Positions 2,638-26,352 of a stretch of DNA of 32,000 bases are shown piece after piece. Made by a program: the position numbers and the translations under genes. Numbering within the stretch: position 1 is the first letter of the stretch; each line of letters opens with the position of its first letter. The notes below the pieces were generated by a model. The model saw nothing but the letters and a program-made list of their open reading frames with translations, made no database searches and was not told where the DNA came from. Source of the stretch: Rhodobacter capsulatus SB 1003. Lineage in GTDB: Bacteria; Pseudomonadota; Alphaproteobacteria; Rhodobacterales; Rhodobacteraceae. The stretch is from NCBI RefSeq assembly GCF_000021865.1, contig NC_014034.1:3210001-3242000 (forward strand). The letters run 5' to 3'.

Positions 2638-2639
2638 GG

Positions 2640-2711
2640 GATCCCCCTCGTGGTCCGGGGCAGGATAGGGGCGGCGCATGGGGGGCCCAAGGCCCGGAAC
2701 GTCGCATGGCC
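2640..2711. repeat. Right copy of the ~70-bp imperfect direct repeat flanking the IS186-like segment
   Basis: gatccccctcgtggtccggggcaggataggggcggcgcatggggggcccaaggcccggaacgtcgcatggcc is roughly nine-tenths identical to 1291-1360 in the same orientation. Confidence 0.85.
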
Positions 2712-2736
2712 GGGAAACCCCGGCCCTGCGCGAAAG

Positions 2737-4059
2737 TTACATGCCAAGCAGATTGGGCAAGGCCAGACTGATCGCCGGGACATAGGTCACCAGCACGAGG
2801 AAGGCGAGCATGGTCAGAAGCCAGGGCCAGACCGCCACCGTCAGTTCGGTGATGCCCATCTTGGTGATCCCCGAGGCGACGTAAAGGTTCAGCCCCACCG
2901 GCGGGTGGCACATGCCGACTTCCATGTTGACGACGATCATGATGCCGAAATGCACCGGGTCGATGCCCAGCCGCACCGCGACCGGAAACAGGATCGGCGC
3001 CATGATCAAGACGATCGAGGAGGGCTCCATGAAGTTGCCCGCGGCCAGCAGCAGGATGTTGACGATGATCAGGAACATCCACCAGGACAGACCCGCGTTC
3101 ACCATCCATTCGCCCAAGGCCTGCGGGATGCCCTCATGCGCCATCAGGAAGCTGAACAGCACCGCATTGGTGATGATGTAAAGCAGCATCGCCGACATGT
3201 TGGCGGACGACAGCAGCACCCGGGGCACGTCGCGCAGGGTCAGGTCCTTGTAGACGAAGACCGAGATGAAAAAGGCGTAGACGGCGCTCATCGCGGCGGC
3301 TTCGGTCGGCGTGAAGATGCCCGCATAGATCCCGCCGATGACGACGACGATCAGCATCAGCCCCCAGGCGGCCTCGCGGAAGGCGGTCCAGCGCTGGCGC
3401 AGGCTGGCCTTTTCCAGACGCGGATAGCCGAATTTGCGCGCCCGGTTCCAGGTGGTGAAGGCAAGGAAGCCCGCCAGCATCAGACCGGGCACGACCCCCG
3501 CCATGAAGAGTTCGCCCACCGAGGCCGAGGAAACCGGCTGGCCATCCGGCCCCGTCACCACCATCCCCGAGGTGGCGACGGCATACATCACCATCACGAT
3601 GGACGGCGGAATGAGAATGCCCAAGGCGCCCGAGGTGGTGATGACGCCCGCGCCGAATTGCTTCGGAAAGCCCTGATTGACCATCGCGGGCAGGATCACC
3701 GAGCCGATGGCTACGACGGTGGCGGGCGAGGAGCCGGACACCGCGGCGAAAAGCGCGCAGGCGATCACGCCCGCAAGGCCAAGCCCGCCGTGCCAGTGAC
3801 CGACCATCGCCGTGGCGAAGTTGATCATCCGCTTCGCCACCCCGCCATGGGTCAGGAAGTTCCCCGCCAGGATGAAGAACGGGATCGCCATGATCTCGAA
3901 TTTCTCGATGCCGGTGAAGAGCTTGAGCGCCACCGTGTCGATCGGCACCTGGGTCATGGTGAACAGGAAGGTCAGCACCGTCAGGCCAAGCGAGATCGAG
4001 ATCGGCATGCCGGTCAGCATCAGCGCGATGAGCAGACCAAAGATGATGAGGGCGCTCAT
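2737..4059 (-). CDS. dctM: TRAP C4-dicarboxylate transporter, large permease subunit DctM
   Basis: Polytopic membrane protein starting MSALIIFGLLIALMLTGMPISISLG, a typical DctM-family N-terminus. The ATG at 4059 lies 1 nt after the dctQ stop. This gives 440 aa, whereas the longer track start at 4086 overlaps dctQ. Confidence 0.95.
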   Translation of the reverse strand: MSALIIFGLLIALMLTGMPISISLGLTVLTFLFTMTQVPIDTVALKLFTGIEKFEIMAIPFFILAGNFLTHGGVAKRMINFATAMVGHWHGGLGLAGVIACALFAAVSGSSPATVVAIGSVILPAMVNQGFPKQFGAGVITTSGALGILIPPSIVMVMYAVATSGMVVTGPDGQPVSSASVGELFMAGVVPGLMLAGFLAFTTWNRARKFGYPRLEKASLRQRWTAFREAAWGLMLIVVVIGGIYAGIFTPTEAAAMSAVYAFFISVFVYKDLTLRDVPRVLLSSANMSAMLLYIITNAVLFSFLMAHEGIPQALGEWMVNAGLSWWMFLIIVNILLLAAGNFMEPSSIVLIMAPILFPVAVRLGIDPVHFGIMIVVNMEVGMCHPPVGLNLYVASGITKMGITELTVAVWPWLLTMLAFLVLVTYVPAISLALPNLLGM

Positions 4060-4060
4060 G

Positions 4061-4744
4061 TCAGTTGTCCTTCGGTTTTTCGACAAGGTCGCGCGGCGTC
4101 AGCGGCGAATGCAGCAGCACGTCGCCCTCGGCATCGATGCCCTCGTTTTCGGTGTCGACGCCATCGACATGGCCGTGGTCGTGATGCGGCAGCTCGCCGG
4201 TGCGGGCAAAGCCGAAGGCCACCTGCAGGAAGCGGAAGCACATCAGCGACGACCCCATCGGGATCGCCAGATAAACCAGCCACATCGGCAGTTCGAGATC
4301 GGGCGAGGTCGAGGAGGCGTGATACATGTGCAGCACGAAATTCGCGCCCAGCGTCGCGATGATGCCGGTGAAGAGCGCCCCGGCCCCCAGACCCAGCAGG
4401 ATGAAGAAGCGCCGCTTCGGCGCGTCAAGCCGGTTGATCAGCACGTCGATGCCGACATGGATCCCGGTGCGCACGCCGTAAGCCGCGCCGAATTTCGCCA
4501 TCCAGACGAACAGGATGATGCACAGCTCCTGCGCCCAGACGAGGTTGATGCCGCGCAGCGTCGTGTAAAGGCTTTTCGCGGCGGCGGCGGCACCGGTCAT
4601 GCCGTGGCCGCGGAAGAAGCCGACGAAATCGGCGACGAAGCCAAGGGTGAAACGATGGGTGACCGACACGAAGATCAGCACCGTCGCCGTCGCGATGAGC
4701 GCGGCAATCAGCACCTCTTCGGCCCGGTCGAGGATGCGCAGCAT
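4061..4744 (-). CDS. dctQ: TRAP C4-dicarboxylate transporter, small permease subunit DctQ
   Basis: 227-aa four-TM protein located between dctP and dctM, in the classical dctPQM order. Confidence 0.9.
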   Translation of the reverse strand: MLRILDRAEEVLIAALIATATVLIFVSVTHRFTLGFVADFVGFFRGHGMTGAAAAAKSLYTTLRGINLVWAQELCIILFVWMAKFGAAYGVRTGIHVGIDVLINRLDAPKRRFFILLGLGAGALFTGIIATLGANFVLHMYHASSTSPDLELPMWLVYLAIPMGSSLMCFRFLQVAFGFARTGELPHHDHGHVDGVDTENEGIDAEGDVLLHSPLTPRDLVEKPKDN

Positions 4745-4801
4745 GGCGGCCCCCGCTTAGGTCGTGGAAGGAAAGGGAAAGGGCGGCGCCGCCCGCAGGT
4801 C

Positions 4802-5803
4802 TTATTCCGCCGTCGCGGCCTTGACGGCGGCGATGGTTTCGGCGCCGATCCGCTCGGCCATTTCGTCATGCACCGGGGTCAGAACCTCTTCCCAGGCGGC
4901 GCGTTCTTCCGCGGTCAGCTCGTGGAATTCGGTCGTGCCGGCGTCTTTCATCGCCTGCAGGGCCTTTTCGTTCTCTTCCTTGGCGATGCCGTTCGCGTAA
5001 TCGGTCGATTCCGCCATCGCCTTTTCCAGACCGGTGCGGACATCGGCGGGCAGGCCGTCCCAGAACTGCTTGTTCACGATCACCGCATAGCCCAGATAGC
5101 CATGGTTCGAGACGGTGGCGTGTTTCTGCACCTCGTTCATCTTTTGCGTGAACATGTTCGAGGGCGGGTTTTCGGTGCCGTCGACAACGCCCGTCTGCAG
5201 CGCCTGATAGACTTCCGAGAAGGCCATGACCTGCGGCACGGCGCCGAGCGCGTTCATCTCGGCTTCCAGCACTTTCGAGGACTGGATGCGCATCTTCAGG
5301 CCGAGGAAATCATCGGGCATCGTCAGCGGCGTGTTCGCCGACATGATCTTGAAGCCGTTGTCCCAGAAGGCCAGCCCGGTGATGCCCTTGGCTTCCAGTT
5401 TCGACAGCAGCATCTTGCCCGCTTCGCCCTGGGTCACCTTGTGCAGGGCCTCGTAGTCCTTGAAGATGTAGGGCAGGTCGAAGACTTCGAAATCCTGCAC
5501 GCCAAGCGGGCCGAATTTCGCCAAGGACGGCGCCAGCATCTGCACCGCGCCCAGTTGCAGCGCTTCAAGCTCTTCCTTGTCCTTGTAAAGCTGGCTGTTG
5601 GGATAGACTTCCACGTCCACCGCGCCGTTGGTGTATTTCTCGGCCAGTTCCTCGAATTTCGCGGCACCCTTGCCCTTGGGCGTGTCGGGGGCGACGACAT
5701 GGCTGAACTTGATCACGATGGGCTCGGCAAGCGCCGGGACCGAAAGCGCAAGGCTGAGCGCGGTGGCGCCGACAAGGGCGCCAAGGATACGACGGGTCAA
5801 CAT
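4802..5803 (-). CDS. dctP: TRAP C4-dicarboxylate periplasmic solute-binding protein DctP
   Basis: Signal peptide MLTRRILGALVGATALSLALSVPALA followed by a DctP-family SBP body (FSHVV..DTPKGK..). GGAGGAG lies 6 nt upstream of the ATG at 5803. The track start at 5857 adds an Arg-rich extension with no RBS. Confidence 0.95.
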   Translation of the reverse strand: MLTRRILGALVGATALSLALSVPALAEPIVIKFSHVVAPDTPKGKGAAKFEELAEKYTNGAVDVEVYPNSQLYKDKEELEALQLGAVQMLAPSLAKFGPLGVQDFEVFDLPYIFKDYEALHKVTQGEAGKMLLSKLEAKGITGLAFWDNGFKIMSANTPLTMPDDFLGLKMRIQSSKVLEAEMNALGAVPQVMAFSEVYQALQTGVVDGTENPPSNMFTQKMNEVQKHATVSNHGYLGYAVIVNKQFWDGLPADVRTGLEKAMAESTDYANGIAKEENEKALQAMKDAGTTEFHELTAEERAAWEEVLTPVHDEMAERIGAETIAAVKAATAE

Positions 5804-5850
5804 GTGATTCTCCTCCGGTTCCCGCTCTCCACGGCGGGCCGCGGCTTTCA

Positions 5851-5891
5851 TGCGCAAGAATCTTGCGCAACGCTATTGCGGCTTTCCGCAA
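5851..5891 (-). promoter_or_regulatory. Two adjacent palindromes upstream of dctP (candidate DctR operator/activator sites)
   Basis: There is a perfect 19-bp palindrome tgcgcaagaAtcttgcgca (5851-5869) and a 16-bp palindrome ttgcggctttccgcaa (5876-5891). They share TTGCG(C/G) half-sites. They lie 48-88 nt upstream of the dctP ATG in the dctP-dctS divergent region. Confidence 0.4.
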
Positions 5892-6041
5892 TCGGAAGAC
5901 ATGTTATGACCAAACGAACGGGAGGAATGTGCCATTTCAAAGCTGCGCGACACCACGGGCGGCCCTGCGGGGGCCGAGGTCTGGACGGTTCCGGGCCTTC
6001 TTGGGGCGCGCAAGCTTGACCTTCTGGCGCTGATCCCGCTG

Positions 6042-7916
6042 GTGGCGATCGTCGCGCTGATGACGCTGGTCGGCGCGCTGCTCTTCGCCGTCGCGCAATC
6101 CGATGCCAACCGCGCCCGGGCGAAACTGGCCACTGCTGCGCTTTGGGTCGAACAGACGCTGCGCTTTCAGATGGCGGTGGACGAGGATGTGCTGGTGCGT
6201 CTGGCGCTGGATGCCAGCGCCGGGGCCTCGCAACAGGCGCTCTCGGCCCGGGCCCGGCTGCATCTGGCGGCGAACCCGGAAACGCTGGGGCTGCGCTGGT
6301 ATGATGCGACCGGCCGTCTGATTGCCGCCGTGCCCGAGGGCCCCGGCCCGGCCGAGGCGGCGCTGGTCAGGCAGCTGCTCGCCTCGGGGGCGCTGCCGCC
6401 GCGGCCGGTCTATGGGCCGGTGCGGGACGGCCGGGTGGTGCTGGCGGAACGGGTCTCGGCCTCGGGGGGGGTGGTGGTGGCGACGGTGTCGCTGCCGATG
6501 ATGCTCGAACGCCATCTGCCCTGGTGGATCGCGGAACAATACGGGGTGCGGATTTCCGACACCTCGGGGGTGCTGGCCGAACGCGCCCGCCGCCCGATCG
6601 CCGCCGCCGCGCCGCGGCACGGCATCAGCTTCGATCCGCCGCTGGCGGGGACGACGCTGGAGATCATGGCCTATGACGCCCCCGATGCCTTTGGCAATGC
6701 CGCGCTTCTGGCGGCGATCGGGGCTTTGTCGGTCTTTGCGGTGCTGGCGATGGTGGTGCTGCACCGAAACGCCCTGCGCCGCCGCATGGCCGAGGACCGG
6801 CTGCGCGCCGAAATGGCCTTTCGCCGCGCGATGGAGGAAAGCCTGACCGTGGGGATGCGGGCGAAGGATCTGTCGGGGCGCATCCTTTACGTCAACGGCG
6901 CCTTTTGCAAGCTGGTCGGGCTGGCGGCCGAGGATCTGGTCGGCCGTGCCCAGCCGATGCCCTATTGGGCGCCCGACTTCCTGGAAGAGACCCTCGCCCG
7001 GCAGCGGCAATTGATCGAGGGGCAGCCGGTGCCGCAGGCCTTTGAAACCCGGTTCCGCCGCTCGGACGGGTCGGAAATCGAGGTGCAGGTCTTTGAAGCG
7101 CCGCTGATCGACGCGGGTGGCCGGCATCGCGGCTGGATGGGCTCGGTGATCGACATCACCCAGGCGAAACAGGCGGCACGGCTGGCGCGCGCGCAGGACG
7201 AAAGCCTGGCCCGCACCGGGCGGCTGGTGACTTTGGGCGAGATGGCCTCGACCCTTGCGCATGAGCTGAACCAGCCGCTGGCCGCCATCGCCTCCTATGC
7301 GGCCGGGGGGCTGAACCTGTTCGATCAGCCCGAGCCGAACCTGACGATGCTGCGGCAAGCCTTTGAAAAGATGGGGGCGCAGGCGCGGCGTGCCGGGCTG
7401 GTGATCCGCCGGGTGCAGGATTTCGTGAAGAAGCGCACGCCGCAGCTGGCGGCCCTCGATCTGTCCGAGGTGCTGGCCGAGGCGCTCTCGATCACCGCCC
7501 CCGTCGCGCGCGAGCATCGGGTGAAGCTCGCCTCGCTGATCGAGGGGCGCATCCCCGGGGTGCAGGCGGACCGCATCCTGATCGAACAGGTGCTGGTCAA
7601 TCTGATCCGCAACGGTGTCGAGGCGATGGCCGAGGGGCCGCGCACCGGCGACGACCTGACGGTGCGGCTGGCCCGCGCGGGCGCCGCCGTCACCATCGAG
7701 GTGATGGACCGCGGCCCGGGCATTTCCGATGCCGTCGCGGCAAGCCTTTTTGACCCCTTCACCTCGACCAAATCCGAGGGCATGGGGATGGGGCTGAACA
7801 TCTGCCGCTCGATCGTCGAGATGCATCACGGCAGCCTGTCGCACGGCCCCCGCGCGGGCGGCGGCACCGTCTTCACCGTCACCCTGCCCGTCCCGCAGGA
7901 GGGGGCCCCGGCATGA
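6042..7916 (+). CDS. dctS: Sensor histidine kinase DctS (TM - periplasmic - TM - PAS - HisKA - HATPase)
   Basis: H-box MASTLAHELNQPL, a PAS-like segment (GRILYVNGAFCKLVG), and N/G boxes (LIRNGVEAM, DRGPGI, GMGMGL). GTG start. The open frame extends upstream to 5910 without ATG/GTG/TTG, so the exact start is uncertain. It overlaps dctR in ATGA. Confidence 0.9.
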   Translation: MAIVALMTLVGALLFAVAQSDANRARAKLATAALWVEQTLRFQMAVDEDVLVRLALDASAGASQQALSARARLHLAANPETLGLRWYDATGRLIAAVPEGPGPAEAALVRQLLASGALPPRPVYGPVRDGRVVLAERVSASGGVVVATVSLPMMLERHLPWWIAEQYGVRISDTSGVLAERARRPIAAAAPRHGISFDPPLAGTTLEIMAYDAPDAFGNAALLAAIGALSVFAVLAMVVLHRNALRRRMAEDRLRAEMAFRRAMEESLTVGMRAKDLSGRILYVNGAFCKLVGLAAEDLVGRAQPMPYWAPDFLEETLARQRQLIEGQPVPQAFETRFRRSDGSEIEVQVFEAPLIDAGGRHRGWMGSVIDITQAKQAARLARAQDESLARTGRLVTLGEMASTLAHELNQPLAAIASYAAGGLNLFDQPEPNLTMLRQAFEKMGAQARRAGLVIRRVQDFVKKRTPQLAALDLSEVLAEALSITAPVAREHRVKLASLIEGRIPGVQADRILIEQVLVNLIRNGVEAMAEGPRTGDDLTVRLARAGAAVTIEVMDRGPGISDAVAASLFDPFTSTKSEGMGMGLNICRSIVEMHHGSLSHGPRAGGGTVFTVTLPVPQEGAPA

Positions 7917-8506
7917 GTTTCACCGTTCATATCGTCGATGACGAGGAAAGCCTGCGCGACAGCCTGGGGTTTCTGTTCGCCTCGCGCGGGATTGCCACGC
8001 GGACCTGGGCCGCGGGCGCGGATCTGCTGGCGGAATGGCCGCTTGCCGATTGCGGCTGTCTGATTCTCGACGTGCGGATGGAGGGGATGTCGGGGCCGCA
8101 GCTTCTGGATGCGCTGCAGGCACGGCCCGAGGGGCTGGTGCCGCCGGTGATCTTTCTGACCGGCCATGCCGATGTGCCGCTCGCCGTGCAATCGCTGAAG
8201 GCGGGGGCCTTTGATTTCGTCGAAAAACCCTTCAACGACAACCACATCGTCGATATCGCCCTGTCTGCGATCGCGGCGCATGAGGGGCGTCTGGCCGAGG
8301 CGCAGGCGCGCGAGGCGGTGGCGGCGCGGCGGGCAAGCCTGTCGGCGCGCGAGGCCGAGGTGATGGCGCTGATGCTGGAAGGGCTGATGAACAAGCAGAT
8401 CGCCGAGCGGCTGGGCATCGCCATGCGCACGGTCGAGGTGCATCGCTCGCGCGTCTTGGCGAAGATGGGGGCGCGCAACATCGCGGATCTGGCCCGGATG
8501 ACCTGA
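7913..8506 (+). CDS. dctR: Response regulator DctR (REC + LuxR/FixJ-type HTH)
   Basis: The receiver domain (VHIVDDEESLRDSL...LILDVRMEGMSG) is followed by a C-terminal LSAREAEVMALMLEGLMNKQIAERLGIAMRTVEVHR HTH. Confidence 0.9.
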   Translation: MSFTVHIVDDEESLRDSLGFLFASRGIATRTWAAGADLLAEWPLADCGCLILDVRMEGMSGPQLLDALQARPEGLVPPVIFLTGHADVPLAVQSLKAGAFDFVEKPFNDNHIVDIALSAIAAHEGRLAEAQAREAVAARRASLSAREAEVMALMLEGLMNKQIAERLGIAMRTVEVHRSRVLAKMGARNIADLARMT

Positions 8507-8542: not shown

Positions 8543-9772
8543 ATGGTTCAACGCACCCTGCCCGAGAAATTGTCGATTCTGGCCGACGCCGCGAAATATG
8601 ACGCCTCCTGCGCGTCTTCGGGCGGCGAGCGGCGCGGTTCGCGCGATGGCAAGGGGATCGGCTCCACCACCGGGGCGGGGATCTGCCACGCCTGGGCGCC
8701 CGACGGCCGCTGCATCTCATTGCTGAAAGTGCTGCTGACGAATTTCTGCATCTACGACTGCGCTTACTGCATCAACCGGGTGTCCAGCCGGGTCGAACGG
8801 GCGCGGTTCAGCGTCGAAGAGGTCGTCAGCCTGACGCTGGAATTCTACCGCCGCAATTATATCGAGGGGCTGTTTCTGTCCTCGGGCATCATCCGCTCGC
8901 CCGACGAGACGATGGCCGAGATGGTCCGCGTCGCCCGCACCCTGCGCGAGCGGGAACATTTCCGCGGTTACATCCATCTGAAAACCATCCCCGATGCCGC
9001 GCCCGAACTGATCGCCGAGGCGGGGAAATGGGCGGACCGGCTTTCGATCAACGTGGAACTGCCGACGGAAGCGGCGCTGACGCGGCTGGCGCCGGAGAAA
9101 TCGGTCAAGACGATCCACGGCGCGATGGCCGAGGTGAAGGCGCGCGGCGAGGCCGCCAAGGATCGCACCGCGCGCGGCACGCGGGCGCCGCGCTTTGCGC
9201 CCGCCGGGCAATCGACGCAGATGATCGTCGGCGCCGATGCCGCGACCGATGGCGAGATCCTGCGCAGATCCTCGAGCCTTTACAACAGCTTCGCGCTGCG
9301 GCGGGTCTATTACTCGGCCTTCTCGCCGATCCCCGATGCGTCGCGGATGCTGCCCCTGATCCAGCCGCCCCTGGTGCGCGAACACCGGCTCTATCAGGCC
9401 GACTGGCTGATGCGGAATTACGGCTTTGACGCCAGCGAAATCGCCCCGCCCGCCGGCATGCTCGATCTGCAGATCGACCCGAAACTGGCCTGGGCGCTGG
9501 CGCATCGCGGGCTTTTCCCGGTCGATGTGAACCGCGCCCCGCGCGAGATGCTGTTGCGCATCCCCGGCATCGGTCCGCGCAGCGTGGACCGCATCCTGAA
9601 AGCCCGGCGCCACCGCACCCTGCGCTACGAGGACCTGCTCGCCATCGGCTGCGTTTTGAAACATGCCGAGCCCTTCATCACCCTGCCCGGCTGGTCGCCC
9701 CGCGCGCTGCCCGATGATGCGAACCTGCGCGCGCGGTTTGCCCCCGCGCCGGAACAGCTGAGCCTGTTCTGA
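8543..9772 (+). CDS. Putative DNA modification/repair radical SAM protein (TIGR03916-like)
   Basis: N-terminus LSILADAAKYDASCASSG plus the radical-SAM cluster motif CIYDCAYC. The C-terminal part contains a helix-hairpin-helix-like LLRIPGIGPRSVDRIL. The stop overlaps the start of the partner gene (TGATG). Confidence 0.85.
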   Translation: MVQRTLPEKLSILADAAKYDASCASSGGERRGSRDGKGIGSTTGAGICHAWAPDGRCISLLKVLLTNFCIYDCAYCINRVSSRVERARFSVEEVVSLTLEFYRRNYIEGLFLSSGIIRSPDETMAEMVRVARTLREREHFRGYIHLKTIPDAAPELIAEAGKWADRLSINVELPTEAALTRLAPEKSVKTIHGAMAEVKARGEAAKDRTARGTRAPRFAPAGQSTQMIVGADAATDGEILRRSSSLYNSFALRRVYYSAFSPIPDASRMLPLIQPPLVREHRLYQADWLMRNYGFDASEIAPPAGMLDLQIDPKLAWALAHRGLFPVDVNRAPREMLLRIPGIGPRSVDRILKARRHRTLRYEDLLAIGCVLKHAEPFITLPGWSPRALPDDANLRARFAPAPEQLSLF

Positions 9773-10587
9773 TGCAGATCGCCCTGCCCCGCATCGGCAC
9801 CGTGGCCGCCTGGCGGCAGGAGGTGCGCCGTCTGGCCGCCGCGGGCATCGATCCGGCGGCGGTGATCTGGTCGGTGGGCGAAACCGCGCCCGACCTTTTC
9901 GCCGCCGCGCCCCCGCGGCCCGCTGCGCCGACGCAGCTCATGCTCTCGCGCGAGGCGGTGGAGGGGATCGAGATGGCGCTGCTGCACAACGACCCCGAGC
10001 GGTTCGCCCGGGCGCATGCGCTGGTGCTGCGGCTCTCGCGGCGGGAACTGCGCTGGGGGGATCGATCCGACCCGGCCTTGCGGCGGCTGCTCGATCAGCA
10101 AAAGGCGGTCGGGCGGGACATCCACAAGATGCATGGTTTCGTGCGCTTTCGCGAGGTGACGCCGCCCGGGGCGAACCGGCGCGCCTTTGCCGCCTGGTTC
10201 GAGCCCGACCATCACATTCTGGAAGCCGCCGCGCCGTTCTTTGCCCGCCGCTTTGGCGACATGGACTGGCTGATCGCCACGCCGACCCTGACCGCGCGCT
10301 GCGAGGCGGGCGTGCTGCAGATCGCGGAAACCGCGGCCCGTCAGCCGCCGCCCGCGGACGCGACCGAAGAGCTGTGGCGGGTCTATTTCGCCGCGATCTT
10401 CAACCCGGCGCGGCTGATGGTGACGGCGATGAAATCGCATATGCCGCAGAAATACTGGAAGAACCTGCCCGAGGCCGATCTGATCCCCGGGCTGATCCGG
10501 GCGGCGGAAACCCGGGTGCGGGCGATGCACGACCCAAACACGCCCGCCCCCCGGCTGCGCCGCAGGGCGCCCGCGGGCAGGGGCTAG
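9772..10587 (+). CDS. DUF4130 / TIGR03915-like putative DNA metabolism protein (partner of the radical SAM protein); no fused UDG domain
   Basis: Motifs RDIHKMHGFVRFREV and AWFEPDHHILEAAAPFFARRFGDMDWLIATP match what I remember of the DUF4130 family. The gene is translationally coupled to the upstream radical-SAM gene. Confidence 0.75.
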   Translation: MQIALPRIGTVAAWRQEVRRLAAAGIDPAAVIWSVGETAPDLFAAAPPRPAAPTQLMLSREAVEGIEMALLHNDPERFARAHALVLRLSRRELRWGDRSDPALRRLLDQQKAVGRDIHKMHGFVRFREVTPPGANRRAFAAWFEPDHHILEAAAPFFARRFGDMDWLIATPTLTARCEAGVLQIAETAARQPPPADATEELWRVYFAAIFNPARLMVTAMKSHMPQKYWKNLPEADLIPGLIRAAETRVRAMHDPNTPAPRLRRRAPAGRG

Positions 10588-11564
10588 CGGCCCCGGATCA
10601 GATCCGAGAAGGGTTTCGTGCCGTCGAACCGCTGCCCAAGCGGGGTGATCAGCGCCGCCGCGTCGCGTTCAGCGGCCGGGGCGGCGGCGATCACCCCCAG
10701 ATCGGTCAGGTAATCGGGCAGACGGCCCGACAGCACCAGACGCCGGTCGATCGGCAGATCGGGTTTCAGACTGCGGGCAAGCCGCCAGACCGCCGTGGTG
10801 CAATTCGAGGTCAAGGTGTTGTAAAACCTGGGTTCCTGTTCCAGCTCCTGCGCCAGCGCAAGATAGGAGAGGAACATCCCCCGGATCTGCGCGGGCGTCA
10901 GATCGACCGGATACAGCCGCACCTGTTCCTTGCGGTAATTGGTGCGCAGCTTGACGATGTCCTCTTCGGTGGCGGCGATCAGCACCTGTTCGAACTGCCG
11001 GAAGAAGCCGCCGATCTCGTTGAACTTTTCGCCTTTCTCACGGCGGATCTCGACCGAAAAGACCACCTGCTGGCCATCGGAAAAGCCGAAACTGACCAGC
11101 AGATGCGCGATATCGGGACGCGACCAGACCGAGGTGATCATGTCGAGACGGTCCAGTTTCGACAGGTCGTACTCCCGGGTGATCCAGCGCGGTGTCGCCT
11201 CGGTCTCCGAGGTCCAGTCGAAATCGCGGATGTCCGACAGCGTCACCCGCTCGCCCGCGATCCGCGCGGTCACGCCGCGGGCGACGTCGATCTCCCAGTC
11301 GCGGTCCTGGCGCGGCGTGATCGTCTGATACCAGCCGCCGACCGTGACCGCCGCCAGCCCGACCAGCGCCAGCCCCAGCCCGCGGTGATCGCCAAACCAG
11401 AGGCCCAGCGCGGCCAGCGCCGTCAGCCCCAGAAGCGCCAGCGCGATCAGCCGCACCGGGCCGGAGAGCTGCAGCCAGACCGCCGTGGCAGCCCAGCCGG
11501 TGCCCGCCAAAATCAACGCCACAACAAGGACATGGCCCAGAACATGCAACAGACGGATCATCAC
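10584..11564 (-). CDS. Membrane protein with N-terminal TM helices and a DUF4105 (Lnb-like periplasmic) domain
   Basis: Three to four hydrophobic helices at the N-terminus are followed by a soluble domain ending in the YNTLTSNCTTAVWRL motif, which I associate with DUF4105. Family assignment is from memory only. Confidence 0.5.
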   Translation of the reverse strand: MMIRLLHVLGHVLVVALILAGTGWAATAVWLQLSGPVRLIALALLGLTALAALGLWFGDHRGLGLALVGLAAVTVGGWYQTITPRQDRDWEIDVARGVTARIAGERVTLSDIRDFDWTSETEATPRWITREYDLSKLDRLDMITSVWSRPDIAHLLVSFGFSDGQQVVFSVEIRREKGEKFNEIGGFFRQFEQVLIAATEEDIVKLRTNYRKEQVRLYPVDLTPAQIRGMFLSYLALAQELEQEPRFYNTLTSNCTTAVWRLARSLKPDLPIDRRLVLSGRLPDYLTDLGVIAAAPAAERDAAALITPLGQRFDGTKPFSDLIRGR

Positions 11565-19997: not shown

Positions 19998-20062
19998 GGG
20001 CAGCGCCCGACCCGAGGGTGGGCGAGAAGCGCCCGCCCGTGGGGGCGGGTCGGGCGCTGCCC
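19998..20062. repeat. Perfect 17-bp inverted repeat with 31-nt spacer
   Basis: gggcagcgcccgacccg (19998-20014) pairs with cgggtcgggcgctgccc (20046-20062). A second 8-bp-stem hairpin cccgatgc-agg-gcatcggg follows at 20060-20078. Both lie between the DUF3800 islet and moaD. Confidence 0.7.
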
Positions 20063-20110
20063 GATGCAGGGCATCGGGCGGGAGCTACATAATGGAACTG
20101 AAGCGAGAAC

Positions 20111-20917
20111 TTACCTTTTTAGCGGCATAGGCTGTCCGCGAGCACTCTTCAACAAACTGACAACTTCGGGCTGCAATTTCAAATCATCCAAGCTATGAAT
20201 ACACTTCAGGCCAACCCCAAGAATTCTTCCATTAACATCTGCAGCGAAGCGCTTTGACAGCTCGTCAAAATATCTTACTTCGGGAATCCCGAAGTTCTTG
20301 GGCGTGAGATTTGTAAGCTGAAACACTGCATGACTAACAAAATCCGCATATTCGAGCAAGGGATCCTCTCCCTTCGCGGCCGTTCCAATTGAAAAAACGT
20401 TCAGAATTTCAAGGGACTTCGAAGCCTCAAACAATGGCATGTCTTTCACTTTTTGAAGAAAGCGATACATAGCATCATAATCATGATTTCGACGCTCAAG
20501 AATCACCGAAATATCATCCGGCTTTGCTCCTAATCTCCTTAGGTAGCAGCAGACAATCTCCAGAAGATACTGGATACACTTGTTATAGAATTTCTGAGGA
20601 TCCTCTTCGATTTTCTCTTTATAATCTCCAAGCGTTTGCTTCCTAGAGATAACTGCGAAATACCTCGCATTAACCTGGCTAAAAGTTCTTGCAAGATAGA
20701 CCTTCTCCGGATGATCAAGATCTGTGGCGTGTTTCCATTTTTGCTTTCCAATTTGATCTCGAAAGAGCGAAAGCTTTTGTCTCGCGTCGATCGCTGAGGA
20801 CGGCTGAAAAACAGCAGCCCCAACAACAAAATAAGGAGAAGCGCCAGGAGAAACATCGCTCCTGACTTTTGCAATACCGGTTTCGCCGCTTTCATCGATG
20901 TAGATACTAAACGGCAA
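20111..20917 (-). CDS. DUF3800-like protein of unknown function, encoded on an AT-rich islet
   Basis: N-terminal FSIYIDESGETG and C-terminal LLEYADFVSHAVFQ resemble the DUF3800 family signature as I remember it. TTG start with AAGGGGG 5 nt upstream. Composition and codon use (many A/T-ending codons) are unlike all neighbours. Confidence 0.65.
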   Translation of the reverse strand: MPFSIYIDESGETGIAKVRSDVSPGASPYFVVGAAVFQPSSAIDARQKLSLFRDQIGKQKWKHATDLDHPEKVYLARTFSQVNARYFAVISRKQTLGDYKEKIEEDPQKFYNKCIQYLLEIVCCYLRRLGAKPDDISVILERRNHDYDAMYRFLQKVKDMPLFEASKSLEILNVFSIGTAAKGEDPLLEYADFVSHAVFQLTNLTPKNFGIPEVRYFDELSKRFAADVNGRILGVGLKCIHSLDDLKLQPEVVSLLKSARGQPMPLKR

Positions 20918-20937
20918 ACGACCCCCTTACCCTTTAG

Positions 20938-21852
20938 TTAACCCCACTCCTCCACAAACTCCCGCCACTCGCCCTTGCTCATGCCGGAGGTCTCCGCCGT
21001 CACCACCTCCCCCGCAAGACGACGTTTCAACACCTCTTTCGCCTTGGCCGAAACACTCACCGCGCCCAGGCGGTAATCCTCGAAGGCCTCGTAGGCCTGC
21101 GGCACCCAGTCCTTCACGATGTCGCCCATGATCTGCGCATAGACCCGGATTTCATATTGCGCATGCACATCCGCCCGCAGCCGCAGGAAGTGGAAGAGAT
21201 TGTGCAGGTCGATCTTCCAATACCATTGCGTGTAGACATTCGCGGGCAGGTTCATCCGCGCCAGTTCCCGCGCCAGACCCAGCTTGCCCGCGTCGGCATC
21301 CGGCGTCAGCATGTCCTCGTAATGGTCATAGGCGCGCATCGCATCTTCGCGCAGAAGATCGAGCACCCGGGCCGCCTCGGCGCCTTCCAGAACCTGACCG
21401 CGGCCCTGATTGTTCACCGTCGATTGCGCCGCCAGATGCTCGGGCGCGGGGATGTAGAATTCGCGGTCCATCACCGAATAGCGCGCGGAATATTCGTTCA
21501 CATTCGCGGTGCGGTGGCGGATCCATTGCCGGGCGACAAAGATCGGCAGCTTGACGTGGAATTTCACCTCGCACATCTCGAACGGGGTCGAGTGCCAGTG
21601 CCGCATCAGATAGCGGATCAGGCCGCGGTCATCCGAGACCGCCTTGGTGCCGCGGCCATAGCTGACCCGCGCCGCCTGACAGATCGCGGCATCGTCGCCC
21701 ATGTAGTCGATGACCCGGATCAGCCCGTGGTCGAGCACCGGATGGGCCTGGTAAAGCCGCGCCTCCATCCCCGCCGAGGTGGCGCGCAGCGTGGTCTGGC
21801 GGCTGGCCCGCTGGGCGGCGATCTCGGCAAGCTGGTCTGGGGTAAGCGACAT
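20938..21852 (-). CDS. thyX: FAD-dependent thymidylate synthase ThyX
   Basis: ThyX signature region [18 protein letters not shown] (RHR...SxRY). This copy has Asn where I recall Ser in many ThyX, and I cannot check how common that is. The ATG at 21852 has GGAG upstream. The track start at 21966 is an unsupported extension. Confidence 0.9.
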
Positions 21853-21992: not shown

Positions 21993-22041
21993 TTGACTTT
22001 TTTGCGATTTTTCGTCAACTTTGGGCCAACGAGCAGTCAAC
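21993..22041 (+). promoter_or_regulatory. Periodic GTCAA(C) motifs in the AT-rich thyX/lipoprotein divergent region
   Basis: TTGAC (21993-21997), GTCAAC (22014-22019) and GTCAAC (22036-22041) are spaced 21-22 bp apart. They lie 14-62 nt upstream of the lipoprotein ATG. Confidence 0.3.
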
Positions 22042-22054
22042 GAAAGACGAAATA

Positions 22055-22987
22055 ATGATCAGACGGGTTTGGCCGCTTGCGGCCCTTTTGGCGGTTGCCG
22101 CCTGCAGTGGCGCCGCGATCGTCACCCCCAAGGATGACGATGGGGATGGCGGCGGTGGCGGCGAGACGACGGCGATCCCGGCGGCTTTGAGCAACAACCT
22201 GAAGGCGGTCCGCTATGACGGCACGACGATGAAGGTGACCATCGACCTGCTCGATTCCACCCCGGCCGAGGTGACTTATGACCGCGATGCCCGGCTGGAT
22301 GTGCCCGGCTATACCGCCTACCGCATGCAGGAGGATTCGCTCGACCGGCTCTTTGTCGCGCTGGGGGCGATTTCGGATGACGGATCGGTGCAGGCGGTGA
22401 CGGTGGGCGACGGCGGGCAGTTCAACCGCTATTTCGCCGGCGGCAGCTATGACCGCGCGGGCGGCTTCGACCGGCCCGAGATCGGCACCGGCCCGGGGCG
22501 GGGGCAGGTCTCCTATGCGGGCAGCTATGCCGCGGTGACGAACGTCGATGCCCCGCGCGACGGCGGGCCGGATGATGTGGCGCTGCCGATCAGCGGCACG
22601 GTCGATCCGATCAACGTTCCGGCGCAGCCGGGCCGGATCACCGGGGATATCTTCCTGAACGCGAACTTCAACGACAATACGGTGAACGGCGCGATTTCGA
22701 ACCGGGTGCTGGTCGATACGAATTACGCGCTGGCCGATGTGATCCTGGTTCCGGGCACGATTGCCGAGGACGGCACCTTCACCGGCAGCGCCGAATACAG
22801 CGACCTGACCACGATCGGCAGCTATGGCGGCATCTTCGGCGGCACCGATGCGAATTCGGTGGCGGGGCTCGTGCATCTGACCGAGTTCGAGAGGAACTGG
22901 ACCGGCGAACAGGAACATGGCGTCTTCGTGCTGACGCAATGCGGTCCGAACAACACCCTGCCGATCTGCGACAATGTGGCCCCCTGA
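22055..22987 (+). CDS. Lipoprotein with a TbpB/fHbp-like C-terminal beta-barrel domain (candidate Slam-dependent surface lipoprotein)
   Basis: Lipobox LLAVAAC followed by an Asp/Gly-rich tether (DDDGDGGGGGE). The C-terminal pattern is GQVSYAGSYAAV..GDIFLNANFNDNTVNGAISNR..DGTFTGSAEY..IGSYGGIFGGTDANSVAGLVHL..HGVFVLTQC. It mirrors the Y-G...F...G-I...G-Y-G-FG-A-E-AG...GVF layout of neisserial TbpB/fHbp barrels. Confidence 0.6.
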   Translation: MIRRVWPLAALLAVAACSGAAIVTPKDDDGDGGGGGETTAIPAALSNNLKAVRYDGTTMKVTIDLLDSTPAEVTYDRDARLDVPGYTAYRMQEDSLDRLFVALGAISDDGSVQAVTVGDGGQFNRYFAGGSYDRAGGFDRPEIGTGPGRGQVSYAGSYAAVTNVDAPRDGGPDDVALPISGTVDPINVPAQPGRITGDIFLNANFNDNTVNGAISNRVLVDTNYALADVILVPGTIAEDGTFTGSAEYSDLTTIGSYGGIFGGTDANSVAGLVHLTEFERNWTGEQEHGVFVLTQCGPNNTLPICDNVAP

Positions 22988-24404
22988 AACGGGGCGCCGC
23001 GTCGCCGCGGGGCTGATGCTGGCGCTTGGCCTCGCGCTTCCGGCCGCGGCCGAGCCCCCGCGCCGCGTGCCGCTTTCCGCGGCAAGCGCGGAACAGATCG
23101 GCGCCGCGGCGGTGCAGGCGCTGGCCGGGCGGCAAGGCCCCGAGGCGGCGGCGCTGGCCACCGAGCTTCTGCGCCGGGATCCAAAGGACCCGCTTGGCCA
23201 TTATATCTTCGCGCGGCTCTCGCTGGCCGAAGGCAATACCGCCACCGCCCGCAAGGCGGCGCGGCGCAGCTTTTTCGCCGCGCAATCGCCGCGCCAGCAT
23301 TACGAGGCCGCCCGGGTCGCCGGACAGGCGGCAATGGCCGAGCGCCGCTTCGGCGCCGCCGCCTTCTGGGCCCGGCAGACGGTGCAATATGCCCCCGATG
23401 CCCGGGCCCGCGCCGTCGGCGTGCAGGACTATCGCCGCCTCGTGGCGCTCAATCCGCTGGCCTTCAGCCTGAAACTGGGTCTGCGCCCCTCGAACAACGT
23501 CAACGGTGGCGCCGACGACCGCACCAACGTGATCGACGGTTTCGATGCGGTCGGCGTGCTCAGCGACGAGGCGATGGCGCTTGCCGGGGTGGTCGGCACC
23601 GCCGATGCCTCGGCCAGCCTGCGGATCGCCGAAGGGGCGCGGTCGCAGACCCGGCTGGGCCTGAACGGCTATGTCCGGCTGGTCGATTTCTACGGCCGCC
23701 CGACCACGACCCCGCCTTTCTGGTGGGGCACCACCCCCCCCGCCCCGGTCGAGATCCGCAATGCGGATTATTCGACCGCCTCGCTCTCGACCCATCTGCA
23801 GCACAGCCGCAGCTTCGGCCCGGGGCTTTTCGGCATGGCGCAGATCGAGGCCGGGCGGCTGTGGCAGGGCGGTCAGCCCGCCTATGACTGGCAGGGGCTC
23901 GAGCTTTCGGGCAGCAAGCGGCTGAACGACCGGCTGCAGCTGACTTTCGGCGCCGCGCATGAGCGCCGCGACTGGGTCGCGCGCGCCCGGATCGACCGGC
24001 GCCAGCAGCTGGATTTCGGCCTGCGCGGGGCGGCGGCCAAGGGCACCTGGGGCCTTGGCGTTTCGGCCAGCACCCTGCTCAGCCCGGCGTCGCAGGCGCG
24101 GCTCTGGTCGCTTTCGGGCAGTGCCAGCTTTCAGCCCAAGGCGCAGCTGGGCCCGGTGGCGCTCAGCCTGGCCGCCGGGGTCTCGACCACGGTCTATCCC
24201 GATTACATGGTGGCGACGATGCACCCCGAAGGCGGGCGGCAGGATGACTCGGTCTTTGCCGAGCTGGGCATGACGGTGCCGAAGCTGGGCATCGCCGCCT
24301 TTGCGCCGGAACTGAAGCTGCAGGCGGTGAAGGTGGACAGCAATGTGTCGCGCTTCAGCCGGACCGAGCTGTCGGTGGCGGTGGGCTGGCGCTCGACGTT
24401 CTGA
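22974..24404 (+). CDS. Slam-like outer-membrane protein (N-terminal TPR + DUF560 beta-barrel; type XI secretion translocon)
   Basis: Signal peptide (LMLALGLALPAAA), then a TPR-like helical region (~150 aa). This is followed by alternating-hydrophobic beta-strand sequence starting SLKLGLRPSNNVNGG and ending VAVGWRSTF (terminal aromatic). It overlaps the lipoprotein gene by 14 nt. Confidence 0.6.
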   Translation: MWPPETGRRVAAGLMLALGLALPAAAEPPRRVPLSAASAEQIGAAAVQALAGRQGPEAAALATELLRRDPKDPLGHYIFARLSLAEGNTATARKAARRSFFAAQSPRQHYEAARVAGQAAMAERRFGAAAFWARQTVQYAPDARARAVGVQDYRRLVALNPLAFSLKLGLRPSNNVNGGADDRTNVIDGFDAVGVLSDEAMALAGVVGTADASASLRIAEGARSQTRLGLNGYVRLVDFYGRPTTTPPFWWGTTPPAPVEIRNADYSTASLSTHLQHSRSFGPGLFGMAQIEAGRLWQGGQPAYDWQGLELSGSKRLNDRLQLTFGAAHERRDWVARARIDRRQQLDFGLRGAAAKGTWGLGVSASTLLSPASQARLWSLSGSASFQPKAQLGPVALSLAAGVSTTVYPDYMVATMHPEGGRQDDSVFAELGMTVPKLGIAAFAPELKLQAVKVDSNVSRFSRTELSVAVGWRSTF

Positions 24405-24458: not shown

Positions 24459-24887
24459 ATGCAGATACGCTATCTTCACACCATGCTGCGCGTGCTGGAC
24501 CTGCAGCGCACGATGGATTTCTTTGCGCTTCTGGGCCTGCGCGAAACCCGCCGGATCGAGAATGAGCAGGGCCGCTTCACGCTGGTCTTCATGGCCGCGC
24601 CGGGGCAGGAAGACGCCCCGGTCGAGCTGACCTGGAACTGGGACGGCGACCCGGCCCTGCCGTCCGACAGCCGCCATTTCGGCCATCTCGCCTATGGGGT
24701 GGAAAACATCTACGACATCTGCGCGCATCTGCAGGCCAATGGCGTGACGATCAACCGCCCGCCGCGCGATGGCCGGATGGCTTTCATCCGCAGCCCCGAC
24801 AATGCCTCGGTGGAGCTGTTGCAGATCGGCGAGGCCCTACCGCCCGCCGAGCCCTGGGCTTCGATGCCCAACACCGGGCATTGGTAA
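24459..24887 (+). CDS. gloA: Lactoylglutathione lyase (glyoxalase I) / VOC family
   Basis: MQIRYLHTMLRVLDLQRTMDFF... and GHLAYGVENI...PDNASVELLQ closely follow the GloA pattern. GGAG upstream of the ATG at 24459. Confidence 0.85.
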   Translation: MQIRYLHTMLRVLDLQRTMDFFALLGLRETRRIENEQGRFTLVFMAAPGQEDAPVELTWNWDGDPALPSDSRHFGHLAYGVENIYDICAHLQANGVTINRPPRDGRMAFIRSPDNASVELLQIGEALPPAEPWASMPNTGHW

Positions 24888-24987: not shown

Positions 24988-26352
24988 ATGCCCGCCGAAG
25001 ACCCTGTCACCGCCGATCTGATCCGCCGTCTGGACGCAACAGAGGCGCCCCTGCCGCTTGTGCAGGCGCTGGCGCAGGATTTCGCCTCCGGGCGCTTTCC
25101 CGACCCGGAACTGGCGCTGAACGGGCTGCGCGCGGCCTTGGCGGCGGCGGCGGAAACCGCGGCGCTGGCGGGTGAAAACGAGACCCTGAAACAGGTGGCG
25201 GCCCTGAACGCCGCGGGCGACCGCGCCGGGGCCGCCGTGCTTCTGGACGGCGCGACCGAGGAGCCCCTGCTCTCGGCCGCCTTCCGCCAGGACCGGATCT
25301 GCAACGCCCCCGAACGGGCGGCGGCGCGGCAGATCGAACGGCTCAAGGCCGCCGCCCCCGCGGGGGGCGTGTTCCGGGCCTCGGTCGATCTGCTTTATGA
25401 AAAGCTGGAGGCCGGGGAAAAGGCGGGCGATCCCTTTGACATGCTTGTGGCGCTGGAACTGGCCAAGGCGCTTTACAAGCGCGCCAAGGGCGGCGAGCTG
25501 GGGCAAGCGCAAACAAGCCTTGGCAATTGCCATCAGATCATCGGCCAGTTCCGCCCCGGTCGCAAGCATCTGGACCTTGCGGCCGAGCTGTTCGCCGCCG
25601 CCGCCAAGGCCGTGGCCCGCACGAAACAGCCGGAAAACTGGGCCTTTTCGCAGCACAATCTGGGCGGCATCCAGGAGCTGATCGGCCTGCGCCACCGCGA
25701 CGGTGCGATGCTGAAAAAGGCGATCAAGGCCTATTCGGCGGTGCTGGAGGTGTTCAATGCGCAAGGCTCGCCGCTGGAATGGGCCAACAGCACGGCGGCG
25801 CGGGCGAATGTTCGCGCGGCTCTGGGCCGGATGACGGCCGAGGCCGCGCTGATCGAAACCGCGCTGGCCGACTTGGACGCCGTGCTCGAGCTGCTGAAAC
25901 AGGACGAGCACCCGGCCGAATGGGCCTCGGCGCGGGCGACGCGGGCACTGGCCCGGCGGCATCTGGCCGAGGTGACGGGCGATGCGACGCCGCTGGCGAC
26001 CGCGATCGCGGAATTCGAACAGGCCGATGCGGTTCTGGCCGGGCTCGACGCGCGCGCCGAGCGGGCACGGCTGCAGCACAATCTGGGCCTGACGGCGCTG
26101 GCTTTGCCCGGGGGCGCGGGGCTTGACCGGGCCGAGCAAGCCTTTGCGGCGGCGCTGGCCCTGGGCCGTCGCGATCACGCCGATTACCGCTGGGCGGAAA
26201 GCCTGACCGGGCTGGGCGAGGTGGCGCTTTTGCGCGGCGACACCGCCGCGGCCAGGGCGCATCTGACCGAGGCCAAAGCGGTTCTGGCGCTTGATCCGGC
26301 CAGCGCCGCGCTGGAACATTGCGCGGCGCTGCTGGAACAGATCGCGACCTGA
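24988..26352 (+). CDS. Tetratricopeptide-like repeat protein, function unknown
   Basis: All-helical Ala/Leu-rich protein with recurring W-A/E...NLG/AL repeat units (ENWAFSQHNLGG, LEWANSTAARANV, AEWASARATRALA, RLQHNLGL, YRWAESLTGLGEV). The start at 24988 was chosen because the upstream extension is Arg/Pro-rich. Confidence 0.5.
   Translation: MPAEDPVTADLIRRLDATEAPLPLVQALAQDFASGRFPDPELALNGLRAALAAAAETAALAGENETLKQVAALNAAGDRAGAAVLLDGATEEPLLSAAFRQDRICNAPERAAARQIERLKAAAPAGGVFRASVDLLYEKLEAGEKAGDPFDMLVALELAKALYKRAKGGELGQAQTSLGNCHQIIGQFRPGRKHLDLAAELFAAAAKAVARTKQPENWAFSQHNLGGIQELIGLRHRDGAMLKKAIKAYSAVLEVFNAQGSPLEWANSTAARANVRAALGRMTAEAALIETALADLDAVLELLKQDEHPAEWASARATRALARRHLAEVTGDATPLATAIAEFEQADAVLAGLDARAERARLQHNLGLTALALPGGAGLDRAEQAFAAALALGRRDHADYRWAESLTGLGEVALLRGDTAAARAHLTEAKAVLALDPASAALEHCAALLEQIAT

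Follow-up and report, generated by a model that had tools for sequence, protein, structure and literature searches.

A predicted surface lipoprotein and its overlapping Slam-like partner gene form a likely cluster 3 type 11 secretion module in Rhodobacter capsulatus

Two overlapping genes of Rhodobacter capsulatus SB 1003 are likely to make up a 'cluster 3' module for type 11 secretion (Slam), a kind that is found throughout Rhodobacterales. They occupy positions 22055 to 24404 of the stretch of DNA analyzed here, a window of 32,000 nucleotides (nt) that corresponds to NC_014034.1, 3,210,001-3,242,000 of the forward strand. The region shares 97% identity with contig AYQA01000002. Slam consists of a TPR domain joined to a 14-strand DUF560 barrel, and reconstitution in E. 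coli has shown that adjacent lipoproteins with an 8-strand barrel are its substrates (PMC5449769). An earlier reading of the same DNA, made from the sequence only, had proposed a Slam/surface-lipoprotein pair, and our analysis supports that proposal at the computational level. Its claim of novelty was overstated, since the locus and its predicted cargo had already been described computationally in 2025 (PMC12282271).

A lipoprotein gene overlaps a probable Slam gene

The two genes and their junction, in window coordinates, are:

22055-22987 (stop included), + strand: cargo gene, a predicted Slam-dependent surface lipoprotein of 310 amino acids (translation, homologues, structure model, Foldseek)
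22974-24404 (stop included), + strand: gene of the probable Slam, or type 11 secretion, outer-membrane protein of 476 amino acids (homologues, profiles, structure model)
22974-22987, + strand: 14-nt overlap of the cargo stop and the Slam start (sequence, related loci)

Both open reading frames (ORFs) are genuine genes and not chance ORFs of a GC-rich genome, because homologues were found for each (242 in the database for the cargo, 43 for Slam), relatives of the cargo occur in 162 species-level genomes, and both proteins gave confident AlphaFold2 (AF2) models. The predicted local distance difference test (pLDDT) score was 90.2 for the cargo, with a predicted template modeling (pTM) score of 0.87, and 90.6 for Slam. 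The database contains a hypothetical protein of R. capsulatus with the same sequence as the cargo. Throughout, structures are AF2 models, strands were assigned by DSSP, and structural matches come from Foldseek against the PDB; conservation figures for the cargo are based on an alignment of 120 homologues, and family figures for Slam on its 43 full-length homologues.

The Slam ORF starts with an ATG at 22974, within the last codons of the cargo ORF, and the resulting 14-nt overlap, which had been pointed out before, is consistent with translational coupling. A mechanically produced ORF list offers a longer cargo ORF from a GTG at 21779, which would enter the upstream region of thyX, while the homologues begin at an MxR...LAAC signal peptide; we reject the longer start in favor of 22055, because this N-terminus is conserved among them.

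Predicted architecture of the cargo lipoprotein

The cargo gene can be divided into five parts:

22055-22105, + strand: type II signal peptide with lipobox L-A-V-A-A-C (read from the sequence)
22106-22174, + strand: disordered Asp/Gly-rich tether, residues 18-40 (low pLDDT, low conservation)
22175-22504, + strand: beta-rich N-terminal handle (effector and pedestal), residues 41-150 (DSSP, conservation)
22505-22939, + strand: predicted C-terminal 8-stranded barrel of the TbpB/fHbp type, residues 151-295 (DSSP, profiles, Foldseek)
22940-22984, + strand: conserved C-terminal tail, CG-x7-8-C-x4-8 (invariant columns, tails of all 120 homologues)

The protein begins MIRRVWPLAALLAVAAC, followed by SGAAIVTPKDDDGDGGGGGETT. 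The LAVAAC lipobox and the Asp/Gly tether named by the sequence-only reading are both present within the coordinates it gave, and the predicted lipidation residue, Cys17 (22103-22105), is kept in 98% of the homologues; LAVAAC is followed by Ser-Gly, which puts a Ser at +2. Published homologues of the cargo were likewise assigned a type II signal peptide (SPII) by SignalP 6 (PMC12282271). Residues 1-40 have a pLDDT of 50-57, which fits a signal peptide and a flexible tether, and conservation in the cargo is lowest in the tether (mean majority-residue frequency, 0.39). The handle contains seven strands between residues 49 and 134 with pLDDT >90, as well as the most conserved motifs, QEDxLDRxFVAL and DGGQFNRYF, and its conservation is 0.54 in residues 41-85 and 0.70 in residues 86-150.

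An eight-stranded C-terminal barrel had been proposed from the strand pattern, and the motifs quoted for it, GSYGGIFGGTDANSVAGLVHL and HGVFVLTQC, are found in the translation. The model and Foldseek support the eight strands (residues 151-166, 191-204, 209-219, 229-236, 241-247, 253-262, 268-275, and 287-295), whereas the proposed length of about 130 amino acids was too short: the barrel spans about 145 (residues 151-295) and is followed by a 15-amino-acid tail past its last strand, on which the sequence-only reading made no remark. Two residues of this tail, C296 and C305, are invariant and probably form a disulfide hairpin. The family has 26 invariant columns in total, and conservation peaks in the pedestal and the beginning of the barrel. 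The cargo is under strong purifying selection.

Foldseek places the predicted fold among known cargo. All of the top 50 PDB matches are TbpB lobes, fHbp, or HphA (probability 1.0, E 1.5e-7 to 1e-5), and the highest query-normalized TM-score, 0.44, belongs to HphA (8gmm). Profiles of the lipoprotein barrel families also match, but all of them below their curated cut-offs: slam_lipo (NF041636, 'Slam-dependent surface lipoprotein') over residues 183-280 with E 1.2e-6 and 28.8 bits (cut-off, 80), TbpB_B_D (PF01298) over residues 147-283 with E 0.0034 and 18.3 bits (cut-off, 26), and FHBP_C (PF08794) with E 0.065 and 14.5 bits (cut-off, 28.1). Across the family, slam_lipo matches 48 of the 120 members, and TbpB_B_D matches 22 of them at E <=0.01 (best E, 1.1e-6). 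These matches at the sequence level are weak but specific. A search of PDB sequences with the cargo profile returned no match at E <=1, and the kinship to TbpB and fHbp is detectable only via weak Pfam and NCBIfam scores together with the predicted fold.

Five of the 120 homologues also matched zf-CDGSH, which we regard as spurious, as the '..CDG..' tail has two conserved Cys and no His; a rescan of four of the longest homologues gave no match to this domain.

Predicted architecture of the Slam protein

The partner gene encodes three parts:

22974-23051, + strand: type I signal peptide, residues 1-26, MWPPETGRRVAAGLMLALGLALPAAA before EPP (cleavage after A-A-A, judged by eye)
23088-23450, + strand: predicted periplasmic TPR-like domain of seven helices, residues 39-159 (AF2, family profile)
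23457-24401, + strand: predicted 14-stranded outer-membrane barrel (DUF560/SlipAM), residues 162-476 (DSSP, SlipAM, Foldseek)

The signal peptide, the TPR-like region, the barrel, and the GWRSTF end listed by the sequence-only reading are all present. Published Slam homologues also scored for a type I signal peptide (SPI; PMC12282271). The TPR-like helices, from H39-51 through H143-159, were modeled with pLDDT of about 95. Searched against the PDB, the family profile picks out consensus TPR proteins (E 5.7e-13), and TPR_19 and TPR_16 are detected in 13 and 10 of the 43 family members, respectively. The barrel had been expected to have 14 strands, and the model bears this out: its long strands number 14, from residue 162 to residue 474, with one additional hairpin in a loop. 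Between barrel strands 1 and 2 lie this hairpin and a conserved PSxNVNGG loop, and P172, N175, N177, G179, and F476 are invariant, the last of them in all 43 homologues. Foldseek matches of the barrel include the 14-strand proteins OmpG, CymA, and FadL, with target-normalized TM-scores up to 0.71. Taken with the cargo, the structure predictions agree with the earlier expectation for both proteins, an 8-strand barrel in the cargo and a 14-strand barrel in the partner.

A DUF560 search gave a divided answer. The window protein itself matches SlipAM (PF04575) only in its C-terminal 79 residues, with E 0.0046 and 17 bits, below the curated cut-off of 22, whereas 25 of the 43 homologues match this model. 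One of them, P0042 (E 1e-27 to the R. capsulatus protein), covers SlipAM positions 3-288 of 288 with 39.2 bits. The family profile also matches published cluster 3 T11SS (type 11 secretion system) proteins, namely SPO1271 of Ruegeria pomeroyi (7e-84) and JT55_01760 of Rhodovulum (4e-95).

Conservation and genomic context of the pair

We surveyed 80 loci from species-representative genomes, using the cargo as seed; 79 of them are from Rhodobacterales, and the remaining one is from a metagenome-assembled genome labeled Sphingomonadales. In all 74 loci with at least 1.5 kb of downstream sequence, the gene that directly follows the cargo is a Slam homologue. The Slam start is spaced -32 to +10 nt from the cargo stop in 73 of 75 related loci, most often -14. 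The survey measures whether a Slam gene follows a cargo gene, and the converse is outside its measure; in that direction, a cargo was reported with the cluster 3 Slam in 10 of 11 hand-annotated loci (PMC12282271), and the homologues of our two proteins come from contigs whose lengths match. The pair is vertically conserved across Rhodobacterales.

Three features flank the pair:

20938-21852, - strand: thyX, flavin-dependent thymidylate synthase (Pfam Thy1, E 1.5e-57)
21993-21998, + strand: TTGACT, hexamer resembling a -35 element, 62 nt before the cargo ATG (comparative footprinting)
24459-24887, + strand: gloA, glyoxalase I (Pfam Glyoxalase, E 4.7e-16)

The divergent thyX is upstream of the cargo in 64 of 71 loci and is a conserved neighbor, not demonstrably part of the Slam system. 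On the other side, gloA begins 54 nt past the Slam stop and is the next downstream gene in 67 of 71 loci; no terminator-like site was found in the gap between Slam and gloA, which may be co-transcribed with the pair. Of 72 orthologous intergenic regions between thyX and the cargo gene, 71 contain TTGAC (shuffled controls: mean 10.7, maximum 19), mostly 56-98 nt upstream of the cargo start, and the hexamer at 21993-21998 is probably part of a sigma-70-like operon promoter. Between 21700 and 26500, a sigma-70 consensus scan returned no match and a terminator scan returned one site, on the minus strand, where shuffles expect 3.6. No match to a riboswitch or other RNA regulator in Rfam and no tRNA were found anywhere in the window. 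In the subset of loci that come from Rhodobacter and Sinirhodobacter, the thyX-cargo intergenic region contains another conserved block further upstream, GTGTCGCAG...GGGGCAC.

Beyond gloA, R. capsulatus carries a 454-amino-acid ORF at 24988-26352 (+) with no Pfam family, which is seen in R. capsulatus loci only and occupies the slot that holds a DUF1194 (vWA-like) gene in marine relatives.

Relation to the published cluster 3 locus

Grossman, Mucci, and Goodrich-Blair (Microb Genom 2025) reported that cluster 3 T11SS are almost exclusive to Roseobacteraceae and Rhodobacteraceae, and annotated by hand, in 11 strains, a syntenic locus with thyX, lactoylglutathione lyase, and DUF1194 genes; in 10 of these strains it also encodes a predicted SPII lipoprotein of 282-375 amino acids with a C-terminal 8-strand barrel (PMC12282271). 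The R. capsulatus pair is a further member of this locus type. Apart from the Slam family, which the profile match to SPO1271 shows to be common to both, the R. capsulatus cargo is 40% identical to the predicted cargo of Roseovarius sp. THAF27 (E 8e-54) and 34% identical to those of Sulfitobacter NAS-14.1 and Ascidiaceihabitans, and the loci share the divergent thyX, the downstream lactoylglutathione lyase, and the misnaming of the cargo as thymidylate synthase. Unlike the published locus, that of R. capsulatus has no DUF1194 gene, the lineage-specific 454-amino-acid ORF being in its position. The published set excludes Rhodobacter sensu stricto, and R. capsulatus is absent from the tables of that paper (PMC12282271). 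A search for literature on the function of SPO1270-1273 gave hits on gene identifiers from spinach, plus two papers on the R. pomeroyi genome in which SPO1273 is the only one of these genes mentioned.

A second difference concerns the cargo itself, as SPO1272 of Ruegeria pomeroyi belongs to another, distant cargo subfamily (E 9e-13 with the cargo profile). We compared sequences from the published supplement (SPO1272 and JT55_01755; PMC12282271) with our survey loci (L004-L083) and found two cargo subfamilies in one syntenic slot. Cargo of the R. capsulatus type ends in ...VFVLTQCG-x7-8-C..., and cargo of the SPO1272 type ends in ...RETGGFIxY, without the Cys pair. These sequences suggest that the cargo has been replaced in front of a conserved Slam gene within Rhodobacterales.

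Many NCBI and UniProt records name members of the cargo family 'thymidylate synthase' (e.g., P0049, P0062, P0071, P0073, P0090, P0107, P0147, and P0157), an error that probably spread from the conserved adjacency to thyX. The misannotation was flagged for two entries in the published supplement (PMC12282271), and our survey exposes it as a widespread database error.

Proposed mechanism and comparison with characterized systems

The following steps are drawn from characterized Slam systems (PMC5449769, PMC8406197), not from experiments in R. capsulatus. Sec would export the cargo, Cys17 would receive the lipid, and Lol would deliver the lipoprotein, which has Ser at +2, to the inner leaflet of the outer membrane. 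Slam would be made from the same transcript, with its translation presumably coupled to that of the cargo because the stop and start overlap by 14 nt, and BAM would insert its 14-strand barrel in the outer membrane, leaving the TPR domain in the periplasm. Slam would then recognize the C-terminal 8-strand barrel of the cargo and move the lipoprotein to the outer leaflet, where the displayed protein would hang by its flexible Asp/Gly tether with the handle domain facing outward.

A close parallel in overall design is Slam1 (NMB0313) of Neisseria meningitidis with TbpB, LbpB, and fHbp. There, too, the partner is a TPR domain with a 14-strand DUF560 barrel, the genes are adjacent, the cargo combines lipobox, flexible tether, and handle with an 8-strand barrel, and a GxFGG...A..VAG motif is common to both. 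Sequence similarity is nevertheless sub-threshold, and the R. capsulatus pair has no TonB-dependent receptor partner. Its cargo is single-lobed, with 310 amino acids compared to about 600-700 for the two-lobed TbpB, carries the extra Cys-Cys tail, and shows strong order-wide conservation, whereas host-facing cargo is antigenically variable. R. capsulatus itself is free-living.

Haemophilin (HphA) and its T11SS protein HsmA, of Acinetobacter, Stenotrophomonas, and Haemophilus are similar in that the cargo has a single handle and barrel and a comparable size, in line with the TM-score to 8gmm. HphA, however, is a secreted hemophore that uses a TonB-dependent receptor, while the R. capsulatus cargo is predicted to be lipidated, lacks a conserved His, and has no receptor gene nearby. 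NilB and NilC of Xenorhabdus nematophila are also a T11SS pair, and NilC, which acts as a surface adhesin or colonization factor and not as a metal receptor, sets a precedent for a TonB-independent role; unlike the R. capsulatus pair, they are host-associated, belong to cluster 1, and are encoded in a horizontally acquired locus, and no specific sequence or structural match between the two pairs was found.

Weighing the assignment and the alternative explanations

Several points weigh against the assignment of the pair to the cluster 3 T11SS. At the level of sequence, neither window protein alone reaches a curated family cut-off, whether for SlipAM, TbpB_B_D, or slam_lipo. The best full-length Foldseek matches of the Slam protein are the polysaccharide exporters BcsC and PelB. 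The invariant Cys-Cys tail has, to our knowledge, no counterpart in characterized cargo (TbpB, fHbp, HphA), so cargo recognition could differ; if its disulfide forms in the periplasm, a small folded hairpin must traverse Slam or be recognized by it. All experimentally characterized T11SS known to us belong to the animal-associated cluster 1 and none to cluster 3, so that surface exposure and Slam dependence of the cargo are inferred. The argument for the functional class of the cargo, finally, is built on absences, namely those of a TonB-dependent receptor, a conserved His, and a metal-regulator box.

As for that class, we consider it more likely that the cargo is a constitutive surface protein with a role in binding, adhesion, or shielding, by analogy with NilC and fHbp, than a nutrient-piracy receptor of the TbpB or HphA kind. 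This follows from vertical inheritance, purifying selection, a promoter element of a constitutive type, and the lack of a TonB partner and of a conserved His. It is the weakest step of our interpretation, resting as it does largely on absences. The opposite explanation, that the cargo is a hemophore-like or metal-scavenging receptor that captures a nutrient at the surface and passes it to a TonB-dependent transporter whose gene lies at another locus, seems unlikely to us, even though HphA gives the best query-normalized TM-score, some Rhodobacterales cargo has been classed as 'haemophilin-like 1', and all but a few of the characterized T11SS cargo types were reported to serve metal or heme acquisition (PMC12282271). 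Neither a TonB-dependent receptor nor a Plug or TonB domain was found among the genes called up to about 10 kb to either side of the pair, or among the Pfam-scanned ORFs of window positions 1-12 kb, and the Shimia and Yoonia loci have no TonB-dependent receptor or TonB gene. In the alignment of 120 homologues, there is no position with His in at least 60% of the sequences and no conserved Met or Trp. Upstream of the cargo, there is no recognizable metal-regulator box and no riboswitch, the conserved element being a plain -35-like TTGAC, and metal and heme pathways were reported not to co-occur with cluster 3 (PMC12282271).

It seems more doubtful still that the 476-amino-acid protein is a genuine Slam whose real substrate is another protein, of the DUF1194 (vWA-like) kind, with the adjacent lipoprotein being an accessory factor or an outer-membrane lipoprotein that faces the periplasm. 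This possibility was raised in the published survey, where cluster 3 proteins were suggested to perhaps serve DUF1194 proteins instead: among 145 cluster 3 loci, DUF1194 was counted in 102 and TbpB_B_D in 8, and the ratio of cargo per cluster 3 protein was 0.21, described as a 'dearth of cargo' (PMC12282271). In our own survey, 33 of 68 loci have a DUF1194 gene no more than 5 kb away. No DUF1194 match, however, was obtained in any R. capsulatus, Rhodobacter, Gemmobacter, Phaeovulum, or Sinirhodobacter locus of our survey, whereas the lipoprotein and Slam genes, overlapping or abutting, stay together in every locus that could be assessed. That DUF1194 is missing from this non-marine clade favors the lipoprotein as the core cognate cargo. 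The low TbpB_B_D count can be traced to sub-threshold scores in a family whose predicted fold is that of known cargo. The ratio of 0.21 is plausibly a threshold artefact, because TbpB_B_D is matched even at E 0.01 by only 18% of the cargo homologues, although a Slam gene follows each cargo gene examined.

That the 476-amino-acid protein is instead a TPR-plus-barrel exopolysaccharide exporter of the BcsC, PgaA, or PelB kind, with an incidental lipoprotein neighbor, is highly improbable: the top full-length Foldseek matches are indeed BcsC and PelBC (E 1e-10 to 1e-8) and PF04575 was reported to capture some PgaA homologues too (PMC8406197), but the TM-scores are low (0.35-0.41) and reflect only the common layout, in which a TPR domain in the periplasm is joined to a barrel in the outer membrane, the modeled barrel resembles those of OmpG, CymA, and FadL in its 14 strands and differs from that of PgaA, which has 16, no glycosyltransferase or synthase genes lie near the pair, and the coupling to a lipoprotein gene is universal, whereas the exporters have 16-18 strands, long TPR arrays, synthase operons, and a polysaccharide substrate. 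The PDB holds no solved Slam structure, and this is why Foldseek yields TPR-plus-barrel exporters with low TM-scores; a search of PDB sequences with the Slam profile likewise returned TPR proteins only.

With the pair read as a cluster 3 T11SS, a broader proposal can be put forward, which we regard as tentative and on balance doubtful: the pair would serve surface display as a housekeeping function, not host interaction or nutrient piracy, the lipoprotein and not DUF1194 would be the universal cognate cargo of cluster 3, and the 'dearth of cargo' would be an artefact of profile thresholds. It is based on an order-wide, single-copy, core-genome operon with a sigma-70-type promoter and possible co-transcription of gloA, and on a strongly conserved cargo that has the Cys-Cys tail and neither a conserved His nor a TonB-dependent receptor. 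Our survey corrects the published picture slightly, in that the cargo-Slam pairing is essentially universal when seeded with the cargo, whose barrel has diverged too far to pass the Pfam threshold.

R. capsulatus is a free-living organism amenable to genetics, and its cluster 3 locus is minimal, with a cargo and a Slam gene and no DUF1194. The pair is thus a clean model in which to ask whether environmental systems display lipoproteins on the surface and what role such a protein plays in a non-pathogen. It would hold little surprise for specialists, but would offer a reasonable experimental entry to environmental T11SS.

Other features of the window

Immediately downstream of thyX, a cassette at 20083-20941 carries a DUF3800 gene (20111-20917, -; Pfam E 1.9e-11). 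Its GC content is 48.5%, compared to about 66% in the surroundings, and homology to four other R. capsulatus genomes ends at about 20018-20082 and restarts at 20942. In L001, one of these four genomes, a gene with an AbiJ_NTD4 domain is found in the same slot, which looks like a hypervariable, strain-specific insertion site of the defense type.

Further away, a DDE transposase gene (1776-2588, -; Pfam DDE_Tnp_1, E 1.5e-9) lies in a stretch of lower GC content (56-58%, window positions 1001-3000), and the large ORFs that adjoin it, 2635-4362 and 3812-6019, have no Pfam match. A radical-SAM gene (8543-9772, +) adjoins a DUF4130 gene (9772-10587, +); upstream of the radical-SAM gene are a PAS histidine kinase (6042-7916) and a LuxR-type response regulator (7913-8506), and the DUF4130 gene is followed by a gene with an Lnb_N domain (10584-11564, -).

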